Virus record (IMG/VR): IMGVR_UViG_3300045988_085681
Span: 1 to 64,000 of that record
DNA from: a virus
Length of the DNA: 64,000 bases
Direction: 5' to 3' (one strand)
Under the pieces are notes generated by a model. The model was not told the DNA's origin. It ran no database searches and saw nothing but the letters and a program-made list of their open reading frames with translations. This document shows positions 1,391 through 54,158 of this stretch, piece by piece. The position numbers and the translations under genes were made by a program. Position 1 is the first letter of the stretch, and every line of letters begins with the position of its first letter.

Positions 1391-2113
1391 ATGTATTTAG
1401 AAGGAGATAAATGGAAAAATTGGCACACTAAATGTTCTGATGCTGCCATTAAAGAGAACAAAAGTGAAGAAGATACTAAACTAAGTACTATATCAGTATC
1501 TAAATTACTTGAGTATGTTCACACTGCACTACGTAATTGTGAGATTAATAATTTAGACCCTGATAAAGTTCCAGTATTTCTTACATTAGAGCGTGATAAT
1601 AATTTGTATTCTAATATTGGTTTAGGTATATGTTGTAGTAGTCAGTTAGGTACTTATGTAACTTTAGAGTCTTCAGATTATTATAAAATGTTCTATGTTG
1701 CTCCGGATTCTAAACCTGAAGTTGGTGAATATTGGAGAAGTAGAGGTGTAGGTTATGATTTATCTGGTTTTGTAGTATCTAAACTAGCTGGAGAACGTTT
1801 AACTAGATTAGTTAAATATGTACTTGACACAGATGAACCTCTGTCTCATCTAGATTATAGAGAATTTGAACCTAACTGGATTCAGTTCAAGTTTCAAAAG
1901 GAAGAATTTAATCTGGAATTATTAGATAAACTTGCAATAGCAAATGATAACATAGTTAATGAAGCTATATTAAGACAATGTTTTAAATTTCGAAAAGAAA
2001 AATTTGATTTGGAACTATTAGACAATCTCACTAGAGAAAATGATGGTACAGTTAATGAAAATATATTAAGACAGTATATGATTAATGATTCCGAAAAAGA
2101 GACAGATTTATAA
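1391..2113 (+). CDS. hypothetical protein with an internal tandem repeat of about 27 aa
   Basis: Repeat KEEFNLELLDKLAIANDNIVNEAILRQ / KEKFDLELLDNLTRENDGTVNENILRQ near the C-terminus. Confidence 0.5.
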   Translation: MYLEGDKWKNWHTKCSDAAIKENKSEEDTKLSTISVSKLLEYVHTALRNCEINNLDPDKVPVFLTLERDNNLYSNIGLGICCSSQLGTYVTLESSDYYKMFYVAPDSKPEVGEYWRSRGVGYDLSGFVVSKLAGERLTRLVKYVLDTDEPLSHLDYREFEPNWIQFKFQKEEFNLELLDKLAIANDNIVNEAILRQCFKFRKEKFDLELLDNLTRENDGTVNENILRQYMINDSEKETDL

Positions 2114-2414
2114 TTTCTTTGACGATGGTAAATGTTCGCCAAGTAGATTATATAAAGCTTATGTAAAGAAAGTAATTCCTTTTAATAAGGCTGATATACA
2201 TCTAAAGATACATTTAATAAATAGTGCTCTTAACTGTAGTTGGATATGGAATGGAGATACTGACTATTTTATAGGTTGTTATATTCCTAAGTACGACAAT
2301 CATCTTATTTGGTTTGCAAGAACTAAATATGGTACATGGTTCAGTATGGATATTCAATCTAATTGGCAGGGAGGACTATTAGACGTCAATAGAGATATTC
2401 AATTTAGTTTTTAA
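2085..2414 (+). CDS. hypothetical protein
   Basis: ORF track; 29-nt overlap with the upstream gene, so the start is uncertain. Confidence 0.35.
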   Translation: MIPKKRQIYNFFDDGKCSPSRLYKAYVKKVIPFNKADIHLKIHLINSALNCSWIWNGDTDYFIGCYIPKYDNHLIWFARTKYGTWFSMDIQSNWQGGLLDVNRDIQFSF

Positions 2415-2514
2415 CATTAATTAAGTTTTAAATTATGGGTAATGAAGATAGAATAGATCCAGATGATTGGTATGATATGGGTTTTCCATATAGCCGAAGA
2501 ATCAGAAGATATTA

Positions 2515-2539
2515 AAGAGTTCTAAATTAGAACTCTTTT
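2515..2539 (+). terminator. rho-independent terminator-like hairpin
   Basis: aagagttc-taaatta-gaactctt, an 8-bp stem followed by TTTT. Confidence 0.45.
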
Positions 2540-2542
2540 AAG

Positions 2543-2900
2543 TATGGGGCTAAACTAGTATTTGATTGTCTAGGAGATAAGAAACACAGCAAGACAGTTG
2601 GAGAGACAACAAAACAATAATCGCTAGAGTTATCAATATGACTCCTGTTTCTTACGCTATTGCAGCCTAAGAAACCGAGCAGCACTTGCTTAGGAACAGA
2701 AAGGTGCACTATTTTCCATTTCTTTATTAGTTCTCTGTATACTTTAGGAACAGAGTGGTGGAAGTTGGCAATGTTAATCTTGTCAACCCTAACAGACAAG
2801 GATAGTCTTTAAAACCTATGCTGTAAGAACGTTTTGATGCAAATAGGCAAGACGACGGGGCAGTACCGTCTAGCTCCACTAGTTCATAGAACTGTTTTTA
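2543..2900. ncRNA. candidate structured non-coding RNA (GC-enriched island)
   Basis: About 360 nt of clearly higher GC than its flanks, with many local complementarities (for example gacggggcagtaccgtc). No long ORF on the plus strand; the 90-aa minus-strand ORF is probably an artefact. Sits inside a 660-nt intergenic gap. Confidence 0.25.
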
Positions 2901-3074
2901 TTATTATTTGTTTTTAATCCCTGGGCTATTATTATAGTTCAGGGATTTTTGTTTAATTTTAACTGTTAATTATGGAAGAATATATTAATAACTCTATTAA
3001 AATAATTGATGATATGTTATACAACATAGACATTCTTATAAATTTATTAAAGTAATTATTAAACATTTATCAAA

Positions 3075-9171: not shown

Positions 9172-9252
9172 GTCTAGATAACCAAGTGGTCAACGGCAGC
9201 AAGCTGTTAACTTGCCCCGAAAGGTTCCTAGGTTCGAATCCTAGTCTAGGCG
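9172..9252 (+). tRNA. tRNA, anticodon GUU (Asn) by manual folding, with an unusually long variable region
   Basis: Acceptor gtctaga/tctaggc; anticodon stem gcaag/cttgc with loop cTGTTaa; T-arm ctagg-ttcgaat-cctag; 12-nt variable region. D-arm is weak. Confidence 0.5.
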
Positions 9253-9323
9253 CAATAATATATGCCTCTTATTTCTAAGGTTAGCTACCTTCTCGAAAAG
9301 AAACGTGTACACAAGAGGCGCCT

Positions 9324-9400
9324 GGAGTATTAAGCCCTGTTGGTAAGGGAACTAGACTGTCACTCTAGTAAAACTAAGGGTTCGAGTCCCTTATATTCCG
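9324..9400 (+). tRNA. tRNA-Asp (anticodon GUC)
   Basis: Acceptor ggagtat/atattcc; anticodon stem ctaga/tctag with loop ctGTCac; T-arm aaggg-ttcgagt-ccctt. Confidence 0.65.
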
Positions 9401-9545
9401 CAAATAATGGAGAGGACCTAGCATTTAACTAGGCGGTTGTTAGAGGTAGCGGTGGCGATCCACGAGTATGCCTGATAGCTCAATGTATTATTAGAATATG
9501 GTCACGATAGTTCGCCCGTCTAATGCCATATTCGCTTTTATTTAA

Positions 9546-9618
9546 GCTTCTATAGCACAATTGATAGTGCAGCACTCTTGTAAAGTGCAGGTTATTGGTT
9601 TGAGTCCAATTAGAAGCT
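9546..9618 (+). tRNA. tRNA-Thr (anticodon UGU)
   Basis: Clean cloverleaf. Acceptor gcttcta/tagaagc; D gcac/gtgc; anticodon stem gcact/agtgc with loop ctTGTaa; T-arm attgg-tttgagt-ccaat. Confidence 0.75.
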
Positions 9619-9630
9619 CTTTATTTATAT

Positions 9631-9703
9631 TTGAGGTGAGTGAAACGGCTTACACGTCTGTCTCATAAGCAGAAAACAGTGGGTTCAACTCCCACACCTC
9701 GAA
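9631..9703 (+). tRNA. tRNA with CAU anticodon (Met, fMet or Ile2)
   Basis: Acceptor ttgaggt/acctcga; anticodon stem tctgt/gcaga with loop ctCATaa; T-arm gtggg-ttcaact-cccac. Confidence 0.65.
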
Positions 9704-9709
9704 CTAAAC

Positions 9710-9745
9710 GGTTATTGGTCTGAGTCCAATACCTACAACTAATTA
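9710..9745 (+). other. truncated tRNA 3'-half fragment (near-copy of the tRNA-Thr T-arm region)
   Basis: cggttattggtctgagtccaatacctaca versus aggttattggtttgagtccaattagaagc in tRNA-Thr; no 5' half upstream. Confidence 0.4.
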
Positions 9746-9759
9746 AAAAAATAAATAAT

Positions 9760-10237
9760 ATGAAAAAAAACTTTTAATTATCAATCTGACGCAAACTTTT
9801 ATGATAAAAAGGATTTTATTATAGCTGTTTTAAAAAGCAAAATAAATAGGTTTAAAGAGTATGATGCTGAAAGAAAAAAGCATTATGCGGGACTAGAACA
9901 AAAAATCGGAGAATTAGAATCCTATATAGATGAATTAGAAAATGGACTTAGTATAGATTCTTTAAATAATAAGATTCAGTCTTTAGAAAATGAGATTGAA
10001 AAACAAAAACTTAAAATTAAAGAATTACAAGTTAAAGTCAATATATCTTTATTTGATGATACTAAGTCTTTTAGAGAATTAGAATCTATATCAAATAATT
10101 TAAAGAACTTTAATAGCATGAAATTAGCTAATAAAGCCCTCAAAAAACATCTTAAAGATAATAAAAATACTATATCTGATTTAATATATAAATTAACACA
10201 AGCTAAACTTAAAATAAAACAATTAACTGGAGAGTAA
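9760..10237 (+). CDS. coiled-coil protein, frameshifted at an A8 homopolymer (possible pseudogene or sequencing error)
   Basis: ATG at 9760 is followed by an A8 run and stops after 5 codons. The +1 frame then runs open for about 157 codons of heptad-like sequence (LENEIEKQKLKIKELQVKV...) with no ATG until near its end. Confidence 0.35.
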
Positions 10238-10247
10238 TCTCCAATTT

Positions 10248-10321
10248 GGGCTCGTAGTTCAGTTGGCTAGAACGCTACTTTTGCAAGGTAGATGTCGTGG
10301 GTTCGAGTCCCACCGTGGTCC
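10248..10321 (+). tRNA. tRNA-Ala (anticodon UGC), with acceptor-stem mismatches
   Basis: gggctcg-ta-gttcagttggctagaac-g-ctact-ttTGCaa-ggtag-atgtc-gtggg-ttcgagt-cccac-cgtggtc. Two mismatches in the acceptor stem (G3:G70, U5:U68). Confidence 0.55.
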
Positions 10322-21422: not shown

Positions 21423-22689
21423 AGGAGAACTATTTCATAAAATCACTAGAGATGAACGACAAGAAGAGTGTCGTAGAAAATGGATAAAAAATCGTTGTGT
21501 AGGGACAATAGTTGCATCTACTGGATTTGGTAAGAGCAGAATAGGACTAAACTGTATTAAAACAGTGTTAAAACACTTTCCACAATATCGAGTACTAATA
21601 ATTGTGCCAACAGAAACTTTACAAAAACAATGGTGTGGTCATATAGATTCTAATGGGCTAGGATTAAGTTGTGATGTACAAATAATAAACACTGTAATAA
21701 AACATCCTGCCAAATATGATCTTTTAGTACTGGATGAAGCGCATAGATATGCAGCTGAGACTTTTGTAAGATTATTTGAAGTAGTAAAATACCAATTTAT
21801 CTTAGGTCTTACAGCTACTTTTGAGCGTCTTGATGGTAGAGATAAAATATTAGCAAAATACTGTCCAGTAATTGATACTATTGATATTAATACTTGTCTT
21901 GCAAATGGTTGGGTTAGCCCATATAAAGAATATCTAGTCTTAGTAAATGTTGATGATTTAGAAGAATATGAAAAAATAAATAAAGAATTCATTTCTCATT
22001 TTGAATTCTTCGGATTCTCTTGGGAGTTAGTTAATAAATTAGCTGGTCCTATGGGTTGGCGAAATAAACTACTCCTAAGAGATTCTATGTGTAGTGATCC
22101 TAATAAAAAATCTGAAGTATTACAAAGTATAAATTATCATGCTATCAGATTTTGGTCTACTATGCATGAGAAAAAAGCTTTCATAAATAATCATCCAAAG
22201 AAAATTGAAATAGTAAAGAAAATTATAGAAGCTAGAAAGGATAAAAAAATAATAACTTTTGCTAATAATATTAAAATGGCAGAAAAAATTCCTAATGCTA
22301 CTGTATATTCTAGTAGAACTTCTAAGAAAAGAAGTGCTACAGCTATTGAAGATTTTAACTCTGGAAAGATAACTTTATTATCTACAGTAAAAAAAGCTGA
22401 TGAAGGACTTGATGTAAAAGGTCTTTCTGTAGCTATTATATTTGGATTAGATAGTTCAACTACTAGAGCTTGTCAACGGAGAGGAAGATCAATCCGCTTT
22501 GAAAAAGGTAAGACAGCAGAGATATTCAATATAGTATTAAATAGGACTCAAGAAACTAAGTGGTTTTATGATTCTCATAAGGGAGATTCTTTTATAACTA
22601 TAGACGAATCAGAATTGGATAAAGTGTTACAAGGTAAAGACTTTACCCCAGGTGAAAAGATAGTTCCTAAATTTGATTTTAGATTCTGA
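21400..22689 (+). CDS. SF2 DEAH-box DNA helicase (UvsW / type III restriction-like ATPase)
   Basis: Walker A ASTGFGKSRIG; DEAH box LLVLDEAHRY; C-terminal helicase motifs (QRRGRSIR). Confidence 0.75.
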   Translation: MATNSLIEGELFHKITRDERQEECRRKWIKNRCVGTIVASTGFGKSRIGLNCIKTVLKHFPQYRVLIIVPTETLQKQWCGHIDSNGLGLSCDVQIINTVIKHPAKYDLLVLDEAHRYAAETFVRLFEVVKYQFILGLTATFERLDGRDKILAKYCPVIDTIDINTCLANGWVSPYKEYLVLVNVDDLEEYEKINKEFISHFEFFGFSWELVNKLAGPMGWRNKLLLRDSMCSDPNKKSEVLQSINYHAIRFWSTMHEKKAFINNHPKKIEIVKKIIEARKDKKIITFANNIKMAEKIPNATVYSSRTSKKRSATAIEDFNSGKITLLSTVKKADEGLDVKGLSVAIIFGLDSSTTRACQRRGRSIRFEKGKTAEIFNIVLNRTQETKWFYDSHKGDSFITIDESELDKVLQGKDFTPGEKIVPKFDFRF

Positions 22690-44224: not shown

Positions 44225-44679
44225 TAAGTAAAGAATCTTTTTTAAAGAAATTAAGAGTATTAGGCAAGCAATACGCTAGTAAAACAATACTAGATTCAGA
44301 AAATCACCAAGATGCTGTAGAAGCTGTAGTATCAGACTATTTACAAGGAGCAGAAGATTCTTATGATACTTTCAGAACTTATGATAAGGAAAGATTTTGT
44401 GATTCTTTACGTAATATTTTAAATTATTATAAGAAATTAGAAGAGCTTGAGGATATTTTAAATTGTGTATTAAGAGAATCTCCTATAGGGGAATCTACAA
44501 CATTTATTATAACTGATTTAGTAAGAGCTTTAGCTAATAATGATGTTGAAACTATAAATGATATAGAATGGTGGTTATATGAAGATGTAGAAAAAGAGTG
44601 GATTATAGATAATGAAACTGTAAAAGTGGAAACACCAGAACAACTTTATGATGCTTTAAAGAAATTGAACCGTGTCTGA
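44221..44679 (+). CDS. hypothetical protein
   Basis: ORF track. Confidence 0.4.
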   Translation: MISKESFLKKLRVLGKQYASKTILDSENHQDAVEAVVSDYLQGAEDSYDTFRTYDKERFCDSLRNILNYYKKLEELEDILNCVLRESPIGESTTFIITDLVRALANNDVETINDIEWWLYEDVEKEWIIDNETVKVETPEQLYDALKKLNRV

Positions 44680-45913
44680 CTTATTTGAAAAAGAATTTCA
44701 AACAAATGCTTATTTAGTATCTAAAGATGCTAAAGGTAAAGTTAGATGTGTAAGACTATGGTATGAGTGGAGTGATTCCGCTCATGCCTATCTTATTAAA
44801 AGACAGTCTTGGCAATTAAATGGTAAAAGACTAGACCATCCAGATATTCCTATAAAGAAAGGATTAGTTAGTAGAACTCTTAGGGAACAAACACAACTTC
44901 AGTTTAACTCCAAACTTAAAGAATATAAGGATAAAGGTTATAAAGAAGTTGAAGAAGATCCTGATAATAAAGATGAGAAAATAATTTTAAACTTTCTTCC
45001 TGAGTATAATACTGACTCTTATAACCATATTAAACCTATGTTGGCTAAACAAGAGAAAAAAGTTATTAAACGAGAAATATTTGATAATGAATGGTTAGCT
45101 AGTAGGAAAATTAATGGATTAAGATGTTGTTTTTACTGGGATGGTAAACATATTAAAACTTACTCAAGAGGTGGGGAAAATTATGATTTATCTACCCAAC
45201 ATTTAACTAAACATCCAATTTTAATAGAAATTTTTAAAAAATTTCCAACATTAGTATTAGATTCAGAATTATATAAACACGGAAAATCTTTGCAACAAAT
45301 ATCTGGAGCAGCTAGATTAGAAAGAAATGCAGTGGATTGTGATTGGTTAGAAATTTATTGTTATGATTGTTTCTTTACTAATAAAATGGGAGTTCCTGCA
45401 AAACAACGTGAATTATTTCTTATAAAGCTATTTAAAAGTTATAACATATATGGGTTTAATCCTATTAGAGAATGGCAACAAGGAGAACTTCAAATACAAT
45501 TAGTACCCCAAGTAAAAGTATCAGGTTGGGAAAACATTGAAAAATTACATAATAAATATGTTTCTGAAGGATTTGAGGGTGTTGTATTAAGAGATCCTGA
45601 TAAGCCTTATAAGCCAAACTCTAGGGGTAATCAAATGATAAAAGTAAAACATTACTTAGATGCTACTTATAAAGTTATCGACTATGAATTAGGGTTACGA
45701 GGTTCAGAGGATATGACTTTTATTTTACAAATGCCTAATGGTCAAACTTTTAAAGCAAGTCCAATGGGAGATAGAGCTACAAAAGCTGATTATGTCGAAA
45801 ATTTTGACAAAAAATATAAAAATCATTTAGGGGATTGTAAATATTTTGAAATATCCGATAGTGGAATTCCTTGTCAACCAAAATTCACAGTATTTCGGTT
45901 TGATTTAGAGTAA
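44672..45913 (+). CDS. ATP-dependent polynucleotide ligase (DNA or RNA ligase, nucleotidyltransferase superfamily)
   Basis: Motif I KINGLR (KxNG variant of KxDG); motif IV EGVVLRD; motif V MIKVK. Confidence 0.55.
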   Translation: MSDLFEKEFQTNAYLVSKDAKGKVRCVRLWYEWSDSAHAYLIKRQSWQLNGKRLDHPDIPIKKGLVSRTLREQTQLQFNSKLKEYKDKGYKEVEEDPDNKDEKIILNFLPEYNTDSYNHIKPMLAKQEKKVIKREIFDNEWLASRKINGLRCCFYWDGKHIKTYSRGGENYDLSTQHLTKHPILIEIFKKFPTLVLDSELYKHGKSLQQISGAARLERNAVDCDWLEIYCYDCFFTNKMGVPAKQRELFLIKLFKSYNIYGFNPIREWQQGELQIQLVPQVKVSGWENIEKLHNKYVSEGFEGVVLRDPDKPYKPNSRGNQMIKVKHYLDATYKVIDYELGLRGSEDMTFILQMPNGQTFKASPMGDRATKADYVENFDKKYKNHLGDCKYFEISDSGIPCQPKFTVFRFDLE

Positions 45914-46002
45914 TACTAAAATTTTACTAAAAATATCTAGACTAATTATTTTTAATAGACTATATTGATACTATTAATTAAAATGTTAAAATATTTTTAG
46001 TA

Positions 46003-47211
46003 ATGACAAAAAAGGAAAAATTTATTACTCAATCAATTGAAAAATTTGGTGACAAATTTGATTATTCTAAAGTAACAGATATTAATAATAAAGAAATAGA
46101 TAAAATTACAATTATATGTCCTATACATGGCGAATTTGAGACTACTCCTAAATCATTTTTAATATCTAAATATGGTTGTAAAAAATGTGCTAACCAACAA
46201 AAAGGAAAACATTATCGAACAGATAAAAATAATTTAAGTTCTATTGATACACATATCCCACATATAGAAAATCCTATTATATCAAAATCTTTAGTTGTGG
46301 GTACTGTATACTGTTTTATTAATAGTATTAATGGTAAAAAATATATTGGAGAAACAGTAAAGAAAGATTATACTGTTAGATTTAATGAACATAGAAGTAA
46401 AAGTGAAAGAGGAGTAGTAACTTATTTCTATAATGCTATCCGAAAATATGGATGGGATGCTTTTAATAAATATATCATATATCAAACTGAACCATATGAA
46501 GATACTGAAGAGAATAGAAAAAAATTAAATGATATTGTAAATAAAAAAGAAATTGAGTTTACTAATAAATACAATACTACAAATCCTAATTTTGGCTATA
46601 ATTTAACAAAAGGAGGAGACGGAGTTTTAGGTTACCATTTTTCTAAAGAAACTAGAGAAAAAATGAGTAAATCTCATCAAGGAGAAAAACATTGGAATTA
46701 TGGTAAAAGAAATGAAGGTAAATCTAAAGCAATTTTACAATTTGATTTAGATGGAAATTATATAGCAGAGTTTCCATCTATGGCAGAAATTACACGACAA
46801 TTAGGATATAAAGCTAATAATGTATGCAGATGTTGTGATAATTTAATAGGTTCTTATATGGGATATATTTGGGTACGAAAAGATGATTATTATGAAGGCT
46901 ATATTCAAAAATACAAATCAAGAGTAAAATGTAAATCTAATGATAAGGAAGTTTTACAATATACTTTTTTAGGAGATTATGTAGCTTCCTATATAAGCTG
47001 TGCAGAAGCAAAAAGAACTTTAAAAATGGGATATAGCCCTTCAGGAGCTGCCTCTGGAACTGATTTTTCAGCAGGAGGTTATATATGGATATATAAAAAA
47101 GATTTTACAGAAGATTTATTAAAAGAAAAATTAGAGCTTGTAAAAAGTAGTCGTAATTATAAAAAAATTGTGAGTAATCTTAGACAGGCAGCTTTAATTA
47201 ATCGTAATTAA
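46003..47211 (+). CDS. GIY-YIG homing endonuclease with NUMOD-like DNA-binding repeats (free-standing)
   Basis: VYCFINSINGKKYIGETVK...R..EH matches the GIY-YIG core. KETREKMSKSHQGEKHWNYGK is NUMOD3-like. N-terminal Cys pairs. Confidence 0.7.
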   Translation: MTKKEKFITQSIEKFGDKFDYSKVTDINNKEIDKITIICPIHGEFETTPKSFLISKYGCKKCANQQKGKHYRTDKNNLSSIDTHIPHIENPIISKSLVVGTVYCFINSINGKKYIGETVKKDYTVRFNEHRSKSERGVVTYFYNAIRKYGWDAFNKYIIYQTEPYEDTEENRKKLNDIVNKKEIEFTNKYNTTNPNFGYNLTKGGDGVLGYHFSKETREKMSKSHQGEKHWNYGKRNEGKSKAILQFDLDGNYIAEFPSMAEITRQLGYKANNVCRCCDNLIGSYMGYIWVRKDDYYEGYIQKYKSRVKCKSNDKEVLQYTFLGDYVASYISCAEAKRTLKMGYSPSGAASGTDFSAGGYIWIYKKDFTEDLLKEKLELVKSSRNYKKIVSNLRQAALINRN

Positions 47212-48859: not shown

Positions 48860-49203
48860 TGATTTATTTTATTATAGAGGATTCTCATTTTGGCTCTCAT
48901 GTAGAACAAATATCTACTGATTTTAATAAATTGAGAGAAAATTTTCCTGATGAAGTAATTTACACTACAGATTATATGAATGTAGATGACACTTTATATA
49001 ATATAATAGATTATTCTAATATGCCATATAAATCTTATGATGGTACTGAAATAACTAATTGTTACTTATATCATGATAAATTTTATGAGTGTGATGAAGA
49101 TTTGCCGGAAGGAGTAAATCCAGATGAATATATGTGCACTTTTTATAGGACTTACACAAAAGGTTATTTAACTAAAACATGGCATAAAGATGGCTGGGTA
49201 TAA
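48859..49203 (+). CDS. hypothetical protein
   Basis: ORF track. Confidence 0.4.
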   Translation: MIYFIIEDSHFGSHVEQISTDFNKLRENFPDEVIYTTDYMNVDDTLYNIIDYSNMPYKSYDGTEITNCYLYHDKFYECDEDLPEGVNPDEYMCTFYRTYTKGYLTKTWHKDGWV

Positions 49204-50014
49204 TTTAATTACAGACGATAGTGAAGCACTACAAGCTTACCTAAATAACATTACTCATTCTACCCCATTATCTTTAGAGGAAGAGAAAGAATGCGCTGAC
49301 ACTGGAGATTGGGAGAAATTAGTAAATGCTAATTTAAAGTTTGTAGTAACTGTAGCTAAAAAGTTTCAGAATAAAGGACTACCTTTATCGGATTTAATAG
49401 CTGAAGGAAATGTAGGTCTTATTCATGCTAGCCGCTTATATAAAAGTGAATATAATGTTAAATTTATAACTTATGCTGTATGGCATATAAGTGAAGCTAT
49501 TCGTAGAGCTATTCATTATAAAGCAGATACTGTTAGAGTTCCTGTAAGTCAAAAACTTACTTATAATAAGGCTGCTAAAGTTATAAATAAATATTGGCAA
49601 ACTGAAGATAGACCTCCATCAGATGAAGAGTTGGAAGAAGCTACTGGTAAAACTATGAAACAAATTAATGGAGCTATAAATGCTAAAAAAGTATGTATGT
49701 CTTTAGACACTCCATTAGGTAGTAATGATGATGACAGAGACTCTACTTTAGTAGACATTGTTAAAAACAATAATAGTCCTCTAGCAGATAATAATATAGA
49801 ACAGTCTTATAAGACTAATGTTATTAACAAAGTTTTAAATGGACTTTCTAATAAAGAACATGACATAATAATTTTATGCTATGGATTTACTGGGCAAGAA
49901 TATACTCCTGAACTTATATCTCCTTTATTTGGGTGTACACCAGAACGTATCAGACAAATTAGGAGAGAAGCAGTCAAGAAACTTAGAAAAAGAAAAATTC
50001 TTAAAAACATTTAA
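49190..50014 (+). CDS. RNA polymerase sigma-70 family factor
   Basis: Region 2 LIAEGNVGLIHASRLYK...FITYAVWHISEAIRRAI. Region 4 HTH LFGCTPERIRQIRREAVKKLR. Confidence 0.8.
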   Translation: MAGYNLITDDSEALQAYLNNITHSTPLSLEEEKECADTGDWEKLVNANLKFVVTVAKKFQNKGLPLSDLIAEGNVGLIHASRLYKSEYNVKFITYAVWHISEAIRRAIHYKADTVRVPVSQKLTYNKAAKVINKYWQTEDRPPSDEELEEATGKTMKQINGAINAKKVCMSLDTPLGSNDDDRDSTLVDIVKNNNSPLADNNIEQSYKTNVINKVLNGLSNKEHDIIILCYGFTGQEYTPELISPLFGCTPERIRQIRREAVKKLRKRKILKNI

Positions 50015-51432
50015 ATGATTTATTTAGTTACCAAGGTTAAAGCTTTATTCAAATCTTCTAAATATGAATGTATTTCCATAGAAAGAAGTAAGGAAATTAT
50101 TAATTCTATGAAAAAAATTAGAGGATTAGATACTGAAACTATGGGACTAAATCCCCATACTAAAGCATTATTAACAGTTCAGATAGGTACTAAAGAAAAT
50201 CAAGTAGTAATTGATTGTACTACTATAAACATTTGGGAATATAAAGATATATTAGAAGATTCTACTATTCTATATATTTTAGCTAATGCTAAATTTGATA
50301 TTCAATTCTTCTTTAAACATAACATTATATTATCTAAAGTATGGGATGTAATGTTAGCTGAAAAGATTAGATATTTGGGATATCCTAAAGGTAGTTTCCA
50401 TGCTGACTTAAAGACTCTTGAATACAAGTATCTTAATAAATATATGGATAAAACTGTTCGAGGTAAAATTACTAAAGTTGGTCTAACTGAGGAAGTAATA
50501 GTTTATGCAGCTAATGATGTAGTAGATTTGGAAGATTTAATGAATGCCCAAATAAAAGCACTAGAAAAAGAAGATTTGGTAAAGGCAGTACAATTAGAGA
50601 ATAGATTTGTTATCCCATTGGCTTATATGGAATGGTGTGGAGTAAAATTAGACGTAGAAAAATGGAAAGCTAAAATGGTAAAAGATGCTAAACGTTTAAA
50701 GGTTGCTCTAACTAAATTAAATAATTGGGTAGTAAAACACTATGGAAATGATTCTAGATTTACTAAGGTAGATTTACAAGGGGATTTATTTTCAGGATTT
50801 AATACTGACCCACAGTGTACTATAAATTGGAATAGTGCAGCTCAAGTAATTCCATTATTTAAAGCTATTGGAATAAATACTTCTACTGTAGATAGTAAAA
50901 CAAAGAAATTAAAAGATTCTGTAGATGCTAAATTATTAGAGCCTCAAGCTAAGGATTTTGAAATTCTTCCTATTTATCTAGATTATAAGGAAGCTCAAAA
51001 AGTATGTTCTACTTATGGACAGAACTGGTTAGACCAAATAAATTCCGAAACTGGTAGAGTATATACTAAGTTTAATCAGTTAGGTACTAATACTGCTAGA
51101 ATATCTAGTGGTGGAAAAGATAAGAATGCTAAAATAGAATATGTAAATTTTCTTAATCTTCCAGCAGATCCAGAAACTAGAAGTTGTTTTATTGCAGAGA
51201 AAGGTAACTCTTGGATTTCCATAGATTATTCAGGACAAGAGTCCTTTATTATGGCTTCCATTTCTAATGATAAAGCTTTAATACATGAATTAATGGAAGG
51301 AAGTGGGGATTTGCATTCTCTAACTGCTTATATGAGTTATCCTGATCAAATACCAAGAGATACAAAAATAACAGAAATTAAAGAAAAGTATCACCATCTT
51401 AGACAAGAAGCCAAAGGCATAGAATTTGCCAT
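50015..51432 (+). CDS. family A (T7-like) DNA polymerase, exon 1 (3'-5' exo domain, palm motif A, start of motif B)
   Basis: Exo I GLDTETMG; Exo III YAANDV; motif A SIDYSGQESFIMAS; motif B begins RQEAKGIEFAI. The ORF then stops, and the motif continues in exon 2. Confidence 0.7.
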
Positions 51433-52662
51433 TAATCCTTAAATTATTGCAATTTTTATTTTGATATAATTCGCTATAAACTATATTACTATTAATAAAT
51501 ATTTTAGTAATATGGATATAGAAAAAGAATTGAAAATCAAAAACTTGTATGAAAAAGATACAAAGATTAGTGAAATTTTAAAGATTTGTAAATGTAGTAG
51601 TGCTACAGTAAATAAAGTAAGAGAAAAATATAATTTACCGAAAAGAAGGAATTCTCCCTCAAAGATTCCTATAAATGAATCTTTAGTAGTAAAATTATAT
51701 ACCGAAGGAGTAATATTAACTGAAATTACAAAAACTTGTCATTGCAGTACCAACACTGTCTCATCAATACTAGATAAATATAATATTCCTAAGCGTTCTC
51801 AGAGAATAAATAAAAAACCTAATAAGGATTTAAGTAAATTTATGGATTTAACTTCTCCAGAAACTCAATATTGGATAGGATTTATATGTGCAGATGGTAA
51901 TATAAATTATAATCCAGAAAAGAGGGCTTATAAAGTTTCTCTATTTAGTAAGGATGAAGAAGTCATAATTAAATTTATAAAATATTTTGGAGAAAATACA
52001 GTTTGTAGAAGTGACAGACCTACAGGTATAAAAGAAGCTTATATATGCTCTAAAGAACTTTGTGAATATTTTATTAATATATTAAATATTACCCCTAATA
52101 AGTCTCTTACATTAAATCCTAATATTGAGTATACTAACAATTTTATTTTAGGCTATTTTGATGGAGACGGAAGCATTAGAAACAGTTCAGAAAAACAAAT
52201 TAGATACGAGTGTAATATTACTTGTGCTAGTAAAATATTTCTGGATAAAATAAAAACTATACTTGCTAAAAATGGTATTTACTCTATTATTTATCAACAT
52301 ACTGATTGTAATGCTTACAAAATTAGAATAGATAGAAAAAATGAATCTGAAAAATTTTATCATTTTTTATACAAAGATGCAGTAGTTTGTTTATCAAGAA
52401 AATTGAAAAACTTTGTGGCACTCTATGGAAACATAGGGAATGAAAAATTGGGTGAATTGCAGGAACTTAAGGAAAATCTGCAGCCAAGCCAACCTTTAAC
52501 AAAGTTGGAAGGTTCAACGACTAACTCTTGAAACTTCGTAAGAAGAATATAATAGAGACACGAGCGCCCAACACCTAAACTATAAAGTAAGGTGATGAAA
52601 TAGTCTAGCCTATATGGTAACATATAGAGTCTCAGATAAAGAGCTGAGAGTTAATACAAGCG
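51433..52662 (+). other. group I-type intron 1 in the DNA polymerase gene (boundaries approximate)
   Basis: Polymerase motif B is split (FAI | NYGG). Exon 1 would end on U and exon 2 would follow a G. The insert contains a free-standing LAGLIDADG ORF. Confidence 0.55.
51512..52531 (+). CDS. LAGLIDADG homing endonuclease (intron-encoded) with N-terminal HTH repeats
   Basis: Two dodecapeptide motifs, YWIGFICADGNI and LGYFDGDGSI. Duplicated HTH-like N-terminus. Confidence 0.75.
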   Translation: MDIEKELKIKNLYEKDTKISEILKICKCSSATVNKVREKYNLPKRRNSPSKIPINESLVVKLYTEGVILTEITKTCHCSTNTVSSILDKYNIPKRSQRINKKPNKDLSKFMDLTSPETQYWIGFICADGNINYNPEKRAYKVSLFSKDEEVIIKFIKYFGENTVCRSDRPTGIKEAYICSKELCEYFINILNITPNKSLTLNPNIEYTNNFILGYFDGDGSIRNSSEKQIRYECNITCASKIFLDKIKTILAKNGIYSIIYQHTDCNAYKIRIDRKNESEKFYHFLYKDAVVCLSRKLKNFVALYGNIGNEKLGELQELKENLQPSQPLTKLEGSTTNS

Positions 52663-53131
52663 AAATTACGGTGGTGATTTTAACACTATTCATCGAAACA
52701 AAGGTATCTCTATAGAAGAAGCTAAAAAAATATATGAAAATTATATGTCGGGTTTCTCAGGATTAGCTAAGTATCAAGAATATTGTAGAAAAATAGTAAT
52801 GGAAAAAGGCTATATACTTCTAAATCCTATAAGTAAATATAGAGCACATATATATGATTTTGAATCTCTACGTTCAATGCAAGAAAAAATGCAAGATAGG
52901 GAATTTTGGAAGTATTATAGAGAAATGAAGCGAGAATCTCCTAACTGTGATACAGTACAAGAAGTACGAGATTTCTTTAAGAAAAAGGGTGAATGTGAAA
53001 GGAATAGTATAAATTATAGAATACAACATACTGGAGCTTTATGTTATAAAGTAAGTATGATTTATTTCTTTAAATGGATAGTAGAAAATAATCTTTTTAA
53101 TAAGGTTTTAATTACTGTTACCCCCTACGAT
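52663..53131 (+). CDS. family A DNA polymerase, exon 2 (rest of motif B, O-helix region, up to motif C)
   Basis: The open frame begins before the annotated ATG: NYGGDFNTIHRNKGISIEEAKKIY aligns with Pol I IYGMSAFGLARQLNIPRKEAQKYM. RIQHTGALCYKVSMIY aligns with PIQGSAAD. Ends ...VLITVTPYD. Confidence 0.6.
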
Positions 53132-53996
53132 AAATAATCTTGTCGTAGTAAAACGATGTTAATTGCTTGGAACTCCTAAAGATTTAATTACTAAATTATT
53201 GAAATAATAAGCCAGTAAAAATATTAAATATGATTTTACCTCAGTTAAAAGAAATGGACAATAAGCAGCTTTATAATTTTACAAGAGAACAAACTCAAGT
53301 ATTTTTAACAGGATTGCTAGGTGATGGGTGTATATCTACTACAAATAGTGGTAGTTATATTTATACTACAAGTTGTAAACATCTTGAATATTTAGAATTT
53401 AAAAAGAAATTATTAGGTAAAGGAAATATTAAACTTCAAGAAAGAAATGGTTATAGTCAAACTCCTATATATACTATGTATGGGGGAGCTTACCCAGAAT
53501 TATTTGAGTTTAAAGAATTTACTGTTCAAGATGTTATTGAAAACTTAGATTTACTTGGGTTAGCATTATGGTTTTATGATGATGGCAGCCTTCATAAAAG
53601 AGATTTATATTATAATTTAAATACTCAAAAGTTCCCAAAGTATATACAAGAAGGAATTTTTATTCCATGGTTTGATTCCTTGGGCATTAAAGCTAATTTA
53701 AGACACGATATAAAAAGAGGAAAAGAATTGTATTATTTAGGAATTAATAAATATGAAGGAGCTAATATTATTAGTGAAATACTATCACGTTATCCATTAA
53801 ATTGTTACTCTTATAAATTATGGAGTTCAGAGACTATCCTGAAATGGAGTAAGCTGCAAGAGCAGGTGAAAAGCATCGATAAAAATCTTACTAATAGGCA
53901 ATTAGCTTATAAGTGGAGATTTTTATAAGATATAGTCCGAACCTATATGAAAGTATAGGAGAATATATGGAATCGATATATTCGTAACAATATATG
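53132..53996 (+). other. group I-type intron 2 in the DNA polymerase gene (boundaries approximate)
   Basis: Splits the gene at motif C. Contains a second LAGLIDADG ORF. Exon 2 ends on U and exon 3 starts after a G. Confidence 0.5.
53230..53928 (+). CDS. LAGLIDADG homing endonuclease (intron-encoded)
   Basis: Motifs FLTGLLGDGCIS and LALWFYDDGSL. Confidence 0.7.
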   Translation: MILPQLKEMDNKQLYNFTREQTQVFLTGLLGDGCISTTNSGSYIYTTSCKHLEYLEFKKKLLGKGNIKLQERNGYSQTPIYTMYGGAYPELFEFKEFTVQDVIENLDLLGLALWFYDDGSLHKRDLYYNLNTQKFPKYIQEGIFIPWFDSLGIKANLRHDIKRGKELYYLGINKYEGANIISEILSRYPLNCYSYKLWSSETILKWSKLQEQVKSIDKNLTNRQLAYKWRFL

Positions 53997-54158
53997 GAGA
54001 TTAATTGTGAAGCACCTATAGAAATAGCTGAAAAAGTAGCTATTAGACTTCATGCTATTATGGTTAGAGCAGGAGAAATATTTTGTACTAGATGTAAGTT
54101 AGATGCAGATATCTCTAGATGTAAAGATGGGACATTACCTAATTACTGGATTCATTAA
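53997..54158 (+). CDS. family A DNA polymerase, exon 3 (C-terminus)
   Basis: DEINCEAPIEIAEKVAIRLHAIMVRAGEIFCTRCKLDADISRCKDGTLPNYWIH aligns with the T7 DNAP C-terminus DEIQVGCRTEEIAQVVIETAQEAMRWVGDHWNFRCLLDTEGKMGPNWAICH. Confidence 0.6.
   Translation, partial: EINCEAPIEIAEKVAIRLHAIMVRAGEIFCTRCKLDADISRCKDGTLPNYWIH

Follow-up and report, generated by a model that had tools for sequence, protein, structure and literature searches.

Predicted group I introns with LAGLIDADG homing endonuclease genes at two sites in the family A DNA polymerase gene of a crAss-like phage

Introduction

Since SPO1, group I introns have been known from the family A polymerase genes of phages. The T4 td intron belongs to subgroup IA2 and has its open reading frame (ORF) in P6a, where it encodes the GIY-YIG enzyme I-TevI. 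Here, a polymerase locus is described in 64,000 nucleotides (nt) of viral DNA (positions 1 to 64,000 of IMG/VR record IMGVR_UViG_3300045988_085681), a stretch that is referred to throughout as the window. It encodes one family A DNA polymerase (PolA) gene of a crAss-like phage, which is interrupted by two group I introns. We put the probability at roughly 0.93 that both elements are group I introns with LAGLIDADG homing endonuclease genes (HEG1 and HEG2), which are assumed to splice.

The PolA intron sites compiled in a 2012 paper are, in E. coli numbering, 674 (SPO1, SP82, Bastille and Pf-WMP3), 676 (phiL7) and 881 (PhiI and W31), and all introns at these three sites are of subgroup IA2 with HNH enzymes (PMC3428280). 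In Bastillevirinae, which are Herelleviridae of Gram-positive hosts, the polymerase genes have two or three group I introns with mostly HNH ORFs, while one Pol intron, that of a Nitunavirus, carries a LAGLIDADG_2 ORF of phrog_11023 (PMC11878797). According to a 2014 review, phage introns mostly carry GIY-YIG, HNH, PD-(D/E)xK or EDxHD enzymes, which makes LAGLIDADG the less usual choice (PMC3984707). In crAss-like phages, group I introns and inteins were found to be dense by Yutin et al. (2021), mainly for the Delta and Zeta groups and in the genes for the major capsid protein, PolB and primase; LAGLIDADG enzymes were named, and the well-studied alpha-gamma genomes were without such insertions (PMC7886860). 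Phage polymerase genes with several introns, LAGLIDADG ORFs within introns of this kind and introns of crAss-like phages have all been published already.

Results

The locus at 50015..54158 consists of five consecutive + strand ORFs, in which three polymerase pieces alternate with two endonucleases. Piece 1 (50015..51442; 475 amino acids, aa) matches the Pfam domain DNA_pol_A_exo1 (1.8e-19) and positions 29-217 of the DNA_pol_A profile (8e-27). Piece 2, a frame open from ~52658 to 53137, matches positions 219-333 of the same profile (1.1e-10), which resumes exactly where it ended in piece 1. Piece 3 (53994..54158) spans 54 aa. The original prediction had proposed a T7-like polymerase in three ORF pieces here, and the pieces were found where it placed them, with Pfam assigning pieces 1 and 2. 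Joining the three exons (Table 1) gives a 2049-nt frame and a 682-aa product, which aligns to the polymerases of IAS virus and crAss001 with zero gaps at either junction (..GIEFAINYGG.. and ..VLITVTPYDEINCEAP..). In both of these viruses the polymerase is a single continuous gene and protein, and not the separate subunits that the prediction had allowed for. The product has a 3'-5' exonuclease domain and motifs A, B and C of family A, including the motif C Asp-Glu pair, as seen with Pfam and in an alignment to Taq Pol I.

The splice points were chosen from register-equivalent cuts, of which a single one per intron fits the rule that the 5' exon ends in U and the intron in G. Site 1 reads GCCAU^UAAUCC...CAAGCG^AAAUUAC (^, splice point) and falls within an Ile codon (GCC AU^...G^A AAU); site 2 reads CUACGAU^AAAUAA...AUAUAUG^GAGAUU. 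The junctions FAI^NYGG and PYD^EINCE that had been predicted are correct at the protein level, as judged by intronless alleles and homologs. Both the U/terminal-G rule and the restored frame held, but site 1, which had been drawn between codons, lies inside the Ile codon. Precise excision restores the frame, and the predicted spliced product is collinear with intron-free alleles as well as with distant homologs that lack the introns. Related loci (designated by L numbers) provide natural examples: intron 1 is missing from L001 and L026-L028, whose genes read straight through, and intron 2 is missing from L024/L036, L026-L028, L034 and L038, where TPYDEINCE is uninterrupted. Between NYGG of exon 2 and the in-frame stop that precedes it there is no start codon, and so the exon could not be translated alone with motif B intact. 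The ATG that opens the exon 3 ORF is not a start codon; it is formed by the very 3' end of intron 2, AU and the terminal G.

Table 1. Features of the interrupted polymerase gene (coordinates of the window; introns, ribozymes and endonucleases as predicted)
Feature	Position	Strand	Description
PolA exon 1	50015..51432	+	3'-5' exonuclease domain, motif A (SIDYSGQE), most of motif B (RQEAKGIEFA plus two bases of the Ile codon); identity from Pfam and Taq Pol I alignment; 3' end set by intronless alleles L001, L026-L028
Intron 1 P1 5' strand	51427..51432	+	exon UGCCAU, U51432 in U.G pair; complementary to GUGGCA 52415..52420
Group I intron 1	51433..52662	+	1230 nt; starts after exon U51432, ends in G52662
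HEG1 cassette	51457..52411	+	955-nt insertion in intron 1 P1 loop relative to ORF-less intron
Upstream element ACTATTAAT..TTTAGTAAT	51488..51511	+	directly before HEG1 ATG; common to GIY-YIG gene at 45970..46004
HEG1	51512..52531	+	339-aa LAGLIDADG endonuclease, two N-terminal helix-turn-helix domains (Pfam HTH_23)
Intron 1 ribozyme core	52415..52662	+	guide 52415-20, P2 52421-38, P3 52448-54/52565-71, P4 52458-63/52477-82, P6 52484-512, P7 (R) 52512-23/(S) 52598-606, P7.1-7.2 52525-57, P8 52572-94, P9 52610-27, P9.1 52631-48, terminal G 52662
PolA exon 2	52663..53131	+	base 3 of the Ile codon, NYGG of motif B, fingers/palm, motif C through catalytic Asp (..VLITVTPYD); from Pfam DNA_pol_A 219-333 and gap-free alignment to crAss001 and IAS PolA
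Intron 2 ribozyme, 5' half	53125..53279	+	P1 exon strand CUACGAU 53125-31, P10 guide AUCUU 53137-41, guide GUCGUAG 53142-48, P3 53154-60, P4 UGCUUG 53164-69, P5 53174-76, P5a-c hairpin 53182-229, P5' 53256-58, P4' UAAGCA 53262-67, P6 5' strand 53268-79
Group I intron 2	53132..53996	+	865 nt; starts after exon U53131, ends in G53996
HEG2	53230..53928	+	232-aa LAGLIDADG endonuclease; bulk in intron 2 P6 loop
Intron 2 ribozyme, 3' half	53815..53996	+	P6' 53815-26, R/P7 53827-37, P7.2 53854-65, P3' 53872-78, P8 53879-926, S/P7' 53927-37, P9 (GAAA loop) 53942-59, P9.1 53961-83, terminal G 53996
PolA exon 3	53997..54158	+	motif C Glu (EINCEAP..) to C-terminus ..LPNYWIH and stop codon; gap-free against crAss001 and IAS

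Intron 1 is identified as a group I intron by its match to the Rfam model RF00028, for which the gathering score is 50 bits. When the stretch 52395..52675 was searched, the full model (1-253) matched at 52403..52627 with 85.4 bits (E 1e-22). The same site holds a 272-nt ORF-less intron in L021 and L034, and the L021 copy scored 91.9 bits at the gathering threshold. The ends are those of group I: P1 is formed by UGCCAU^ and GUGGCA with a U.G pair at the splice site, and the intron ends in ..AAGCG^. The guide GUGGCA is located ~980 nt downstream of the splice site in the window and 24 nt after it in the ORF-less copies. In addition, base changes in L021 preserve pairing in P2 and P9.1 (CUCAG/CUGAG becomes CCUUGG/CCAAGG).

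R and S elements could be seen by eye in the 3' parts of both gaps (GUUCAACGACUA ... AAAUAGUCU and GUUCAGAGACUAU ... AAGAUAUAGUCC). A pattern search of the window for R elements returned these two as the only exact copies; matches with one mismatch, at 22454 and 56332, lie within ordinary ORFs. Separately, the standard whole-window Rfam scan missed an intron of 85 bits, and other introns in the window could be hidden likewise.

For intron 2, RF00028 gave a 5'-truncated match to the 3' half at 53790..53959 (model 107-253; 30.9 bits, E 1.8e-6), and an Rfam search of the 5' half alone returned nothing useful. The Rfam check that the original prediction had recommended gave a full match for intron 1 and, for intron 2, a match of the 3' half that is below the gathering score. 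A model built by hand contains P1, P10, P3, P4, P5, a P5a-c hairpin, P6, P7, P7.2, P8, P9 and P9.1, with no P2. P6 has 12 bp and closes around the bulk of the ORF. P1 (CUACGAU^ with GUCGUAG, and a U.G pair at the splice site) is paired in all eight copies compared, the intron ends in ..AUAUG^ and GAGAU of exon 3 (53997-54001) pairs with the P10 guide. Both introns are IA-like, with extra P7.1/P7.2 helices between P7 and P3'.

Support for the intron 2 fold comes from its relatives, 18 viral loci with HEG2 relatives at 63-99% identity, all of which are at the same PolA site. Across eight distinct copies, 99.5% of the cells in the 14-helix model are paired, and 25 of 91 pairs show compensatory changes. 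These are found in P3 (3), P5 (2), P6 (1), P8 (6), P9 (5) and P10 (1) and also in P5a-c, P9.1 and P7.2. In P10, a G-C pair has become A-U in three of the eight copies, so that GAGAU/AUCUU reads GAAAU/AUUUU. P4 and P7 are invariant, as expected of the catalytic centre. None of 500 shuffles reached the model values, and sliding the partners by 1-3 columns left 35-48% of cells paired, with 0-2 compensatory pairs.

This fold replaced an earlier one. A first ORF-deleted alignment recovered P1, P3, P8, P9 and P9.1 with compensatory changes, and its P4-P6 region was unconvincing. The corresponding hand model (P4 GCUU/AAGC, P6 CC(A)GUAA/UUAUGG and the ORF simply looped out) was rejected for a C.A mismatch in P4 of most copies. 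A pairing of AACUCC with GGAGUU, proposed by RNAalifold on ORF-deleted constructs that were too short, was dropped as well; the long hairpin at 53182-53229 covaries. The poor P4-P6 of the first model is explained by the position of the true Q element, AAUAAGCAGC, which lies 35 nt inside the HEG2 frame; with this element, P4 is invariant, P5 covaries and P6 has its 12 bp. Sequence comparison thus identifies intron 2 as a group I intron, with an ORF that splits the ribozyme core.

Both introns interrupt catalytic motifs of the polymerase. In the Taq Pol I alignment, RQEAKGIEFAI^NYGG aligns with RRAAKTINFGVLYG, so that intron 1 breaks motif B in the O-helix. The split codon is equivalent to Val669 of Taq and, by our own count, to Leu764 of E. 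coli. Motif B had been predicted to be shared by exons 1 and 2, which holds, and the O-helix had been assigned to exon 2, where just its Tyr-Gly is found; its Arg, Lys and Phe are in exon 1. Intron 2 separates the two catalytic carboxylates of motif C (TPYD^E against HD^E), which are Asp785/Glu786 in Taq and Asp882/Glu883 in E. coli.

Motif C itself, at 53117..53131 and 53997..54002, reads VTPYDE in place of the usual VHDE of family A, with Tyr for the invariant His and a two-residue insertion ahead of it. The original prediction had left open whether a mis-placed boundary or a genuinely atypical motif was responsible. The crAss001 and IAS genes, which have no introns, contain the identical sequence TPYDEINCEAP, so that the Tyr is genuine: it characterises this clade of polymerases and is no splice artefact. 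The motif is kept in cr128_1 as well, and L022 has SPYDE. The label "T7-like" found no support: among solved structures, the polymerase best matches bacterial Pol I (Taq, E 4e-24; Klenow; Bst) and apicoplast PREX, and T7 gp5, with which no direct comparison was run, is absent from the best 60 of 72 such matches. The polymerase region is 98% identical to the unannotated human-gut phage scaffold MT835492 (L001) and 68-72% identical to the DNA polymerase I genes of cr128_1, IAS virus and crAss001 (Crassvirales, Steigviridae).

As predicted, each gap holds a LAGLIDADG ORF with two dodecapeptide motifs, and both ORFs exceed their Pfam cut-offs. HEG1 matches LAGLIDADG_3 (58.9 bits; cut-off 22.5) and, over aa 13-302 only, phrog_4645 ("endonuclease", 3.7e-38). 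Its motifs are YWIGFICADGNI (51869..51904) and FILGYFDGDGSI (52142..52177), with the conserved acidic residue in ..ICADGNI and ..FDGDGSI. HEG2 matches LAGLIDADG_2 (36.5 bits; cut-off 25) and, weakly, phrog_11023 ("homing endonuclease with LAGLIDADG motif", E 2.9e-6). Its motifs, FLTGLLGDGCIS (53302..53337) and LALWFYDDGSL (53560..53592), have the acidic residue in ..LLGDGCI and ..FYDDGSL. Sequence searches with both proteins against solved structures returned no relatives. With two motifs each, the enzymes are presumably monomeric.

The two frames are not confined to loops of the ribozymes, and both run into the core. Relative to the copy in L034, intron 1 of the window consists of 24 shared nt, 955 nt and 251 shared nt, a comparison which indicates that HEG1 is a cassette that entered the P1 loop of an intron once 272 nt long. 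Residues ~301 to 339 of HEG1, its last ~38 codons, are read-through into the pre-existing ribozyme core, and this tail (52412..52531) extends through P1' to P7. The HEG2 frame starts just after P5a-c and crosses P5', P4', P6, P7, P3' and P8, with its UAA stop directly before the S element; the overlap with the core is at 53230..53279 and 53815..53928. Translation and ribozyme folding would compete for the same RNA in both introns.

The element that precedes HEG1, ACTATTAAT..TTTAGTAAT, occurs twice in the window, where zero copies are expected by chance, and endonuclease cassettes may have it in common as a promoter or leader. Its other copy is found at a GIY-YIG-type homing endonuclease gene (46003..47211, +; 402 aa; phrog_314, phrog_7168 and phrog_5123), which is flanked by a complete DNA ligase ORF (44672..45913) on one side and the next gene on the other. 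That ORF was considered as a third intron, in the ligase gene. It is treated as free-standing because the ligase ORF looks complete and no R- or S-like elements were seen by eye.

Alleles were compared among related genomes in which the polymerase is 94-100% identical to that of the window, and six occupancy states were found. No intron is present in L026-L028 (three contigs), intron 1 with HEG1 only in L024 (IMG/VR contig ..076860), ORF-less intron 1 only in L034 and intron 2 only in eight genomes. ORF-less intron 1 accompanies intron 2 in L021, and both introns are present in the window and two others. In L001, the uninterrupted site 1 reads ..KIEFGFNYGG.. (..KIEFGFNYGGDF..).

The flanks of site 1, at 51392..51471 joined across intron 1, are of three types: two intronless, with QLAKKIEFGFNYGG..RNLG (type A) and EFSINYGG (type B), and one intron-bearing, with EFAINYGG. 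At the nucleotide level, type A reads ..AAAATTGAGTTTGGATTCAATTATGGTGG.. and type B reads ..GAATTTTCTATAAATTATGG.., the latter being two bases off the intron-bearing flank, at -4 and -2. Type A, the commonest intronless allele, differs from the window in 23-25 of 80 bases around the site versus 1.3-4% elsewhere; the divergent tract spans -26 to +39 and is ~30% diverged over its 65 nt. Intron-bearing alleles differ in 0-5 of the 80 bases. As type A deviates from the wider family consensus, its tract may be cleavage-resistant or imported.

At site 2, alleles that lack the intron (..GTCACCCCTTATGATGAAATT.., ..GTCACGCCGTACGACGAGATT..) differ at the synonymous positions -12, -9, -6, -3 and 0. All intron-2-bearing alleles retain CCCTACGAT^GA(G/A)AT, which supplies the exon partners of P1 and P10. 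Such flanks are the pattern expected of homing with co-conversion, to which selection for cleavage-resistant targets possibly adds.

Three related loci bear further on these insertions. In L038 (IMGVR_UViG_3300001528_000174), where PolA is ~94% identical, a different insertion of ~1.1 kb lies a few bases upstream of the intron 1 site (1898..3001). It has a GIY-YIG-like ORF, apparently frameshifted, and R-like and S-like elements of its own; canonical splice boundaries were sought for it and could not be placed. Because of this GIY-YIG-like ORF, motif B seems to be targeted by two endonuclease families. In cr111_1 (L042, NC_055880; 1715..3612), two "flavin-dependent thymidylate synthase" coding sequences are separated by a ribozyme core that shares 81% identity with a part of intron 1 and adjoins an "endonuclease" coding sequence, which looks like an unannotated intron in thyX. 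In cr128_1 (L002, NC_055885; 1686..4832), intron 2 is present, and GenBank lists a truncated "DNA polymerase I" plus hypothetical proteins.

Upstream of the polymerase, a sigma-70-like gene (49190..50014, +; Pfam regions 2, 3 and 4; phrog_351, 4e-53) ends exactly at the polymerase ATG, and the same gene also precedes PolA in L038. Five tRNA genes are located at 9172..10321 (+; Asn-GTT, Asp-GTC, Thr-TGT, Met-CAT and Ala-TGC). As none of the five is a suppressor, there is no sign of stop-codon recoding in that stretch.

Discussion

In the mechanism that we propose, the polymerase gene would be transcribed as one pre-mRNA, in which each intron would fold into a P3-P9 ribozyme core. The internal guide would pair with the upstream exon end (UGCCAU/GUGGCA in intron 1 and CUACGAU/GUCGUAG in intron 2), with a U.G wobble at the splice site. 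Exogenous guanosine would attack the 5' splice site, and the freed exon would in turn attack after the terminal G, with P10 aligning the 3' exon. The product would be a continuous mRNA for the 682-aa polymerase, with motif B (RQEAKGIEFAI^NYGG) and motif C (TPYD^EINCE) restored across the junctions. During co-infection, the LAGLIDADG enzymes would cut intron-free polymerase alleles, and repair off the intron-bearing copy would transfer the intron and some of the adjoining exon sequence to the allele that was cut.

Several points weigh against this reading. Splicing and endonuclease cleavage are what we infer from sequence. No group I match came from a whole-window Rfam scan at the gathering threshold or from a permissive scan over 3.1 kb; these negatives are attributed to speed filters, and the short stretch then scored well above the family threshold. 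Intron 2 alone stays below the Rfam gathering score, which is ascribed to the ORF that splits its core. Its covariation is drawn from eight sequences that amount to ~4 lineages, and the structure was partly derived from these same sequences. In intron 1, P5 is minimal (Rfam aligns 8 nt versus 20 in the model) and P10 has just 3 bp. The mosaic tract at site 1 could equally be an import into the intronless allele.

Some of these features would suit introns that have decayed, such that splicing is inefficient, the polymerase is a pseudogene in this phage and another polymerase replicates the genome. Besides the very short P5 of intron 1, the HEG frames that overlap both ribozyme cores could interfere with folding. 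Decay is nevertheless very unlikely, given that all three exons are intact and gap-free against intronless homologs and that the same intron-bearing alleles recur, with intact ORFs, in several independent assemblies. Conservation of the exon bases with partners in P1 and P10 is specific to the intron-bearing alleles. Moreover, P4 and P7 are invariant while other helices covary, which therefore points to selection on the RNA fold.

The same structures bear on the possibility that the gene encodes a genuinely split enzyme, in which free-standing endonuclease genes were inserted and three fragments are translated separately and assembled without RNA splicing, as is the case for some phage genes that free-standing endonuclease genes have divided. 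The polymerase does lie in three separate ORF pieces, the third of which opens with an ATG, and a free-standing GIY-YIG gene exists elsewhere in the window. Simple gene insertion would not need the complete group I cores that both gaps hold, as judged by the Rfam match and covariation, and at site 1 a 272-nt insertion without any endonuclease splits the gene in L021 and L034. Motif B is broken internally and motif C between its catalytic Asp and Glu, a start codon ahead of NYGG is lacking in piece 2 and the ATG of piece 3 is the 3' end of an intron; a split enzyme is thus extremely improbable. Removal after translation, as inteins or other protein-level elements, has a negligible probability. 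LAGLIDADG domains are common in inteins, which are also reported in crAss-like phages (PMC7886860), but inteins are excluded by the in-frame stops a few codons past both exon ends (TAA at 51440-42 and 53135-37) and by the absence of a Hint/intein domain from either ORF in Pfam. In addition, the HEG2 frame differs from that of exon 2, and both introns have evidence of RNA structure.

If the two elements are group I introns, as we prefer, the overlap between HEG frames and ribozymes might itself have a function. Translating ribosomes would unfold the core, and translation and splicing would therefore be mutually exclusive; another possibility is that the LAGLIDADG proteins also serve as maturases. 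The introns would then gate the polymerase, acting as a timing switch on production of the replicative enzyme and not as neutral parasites. We consider such a role unlikely, as we do the lesser possibility that the motif B site is a PolA homing hot spot, unlisted so far, to which introns with LAGLIDADG enzymes and introns with GIY-YIG enzymes (L038) came independently.

Here, the crAss-like intron record is extended to a PolA gene with its nearest relatives in beta-group phages, and structures are provided at the nucleotide level. The boundaries and structures would permit correct gene models where public records show a truncated polymerase (cr128_1) or thymidylate synthase fragments and an "endonuclease" (cr111_1). 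Intron-free, ORF-less and endonuclease-bearing alleles, along with the mosaic flanks, provide a natural series for homing in the most abundant group of human gut phages. Two uncharacterised LAGLIDADG enzymes are added, whose likely target sites can be read from the intronless alleles. The current understanding of group I introns and homing is unchanged.

Intron 2 resembles the T4 td intron in having P7.1/P7.2, in an ORF looped from P6 and as a mobile intron in a gene of nucleotide metabolism or replication; it differs in the overlap of its ORF with the core, which is far larger for HEG2 (P5' to P6 and P6' to P8). Like intron 2, the introns of PhiI and W31 are of IA type, interrupt motif C of a phage PolA gene and have their endonuclease ORF in the P6 region. 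Between the equivalents of Asp882 and Glu883, intron 2 is within one or two codons of their site 881, as judged by the Taq Pol I alignment. The PhiI and W31 introns encode HNH enzymes in podophages of enterobacterial hosts, whereas intron 2 encodes a LAGLIDADG enzyme in a crAss-like phage.

The introns at 674 (SPO1, SP82, Bastille and Pf-WMP3) and 676 (phiL7) are self-splicing, and they share with those described here the group I type, HEG ORFs and a location in conserved fingers parts of PolA (PMC3428280). They carry nicking HNH enzymes, unlike the LAGLIDADG enzymes of the present introns. The site of intron 1 in the O-helix is not among the three sites of that compilation (PMC3428280). HEG2 and the ORF in the Nitunavirus Pol intron match the same phrog_11023, the former weakly. 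Finally, the introns of Yutin et al. are from the same virus order and were likewise recognised via endonuclease ORFs in core replication and structural genes (PMC7886860). The present locus differs from theirs in that the host gene is PolA, the nearest relatives are beta-group Steigviridae (crAss001, IAS and cr128_1) and the RNA structures have been worked out.

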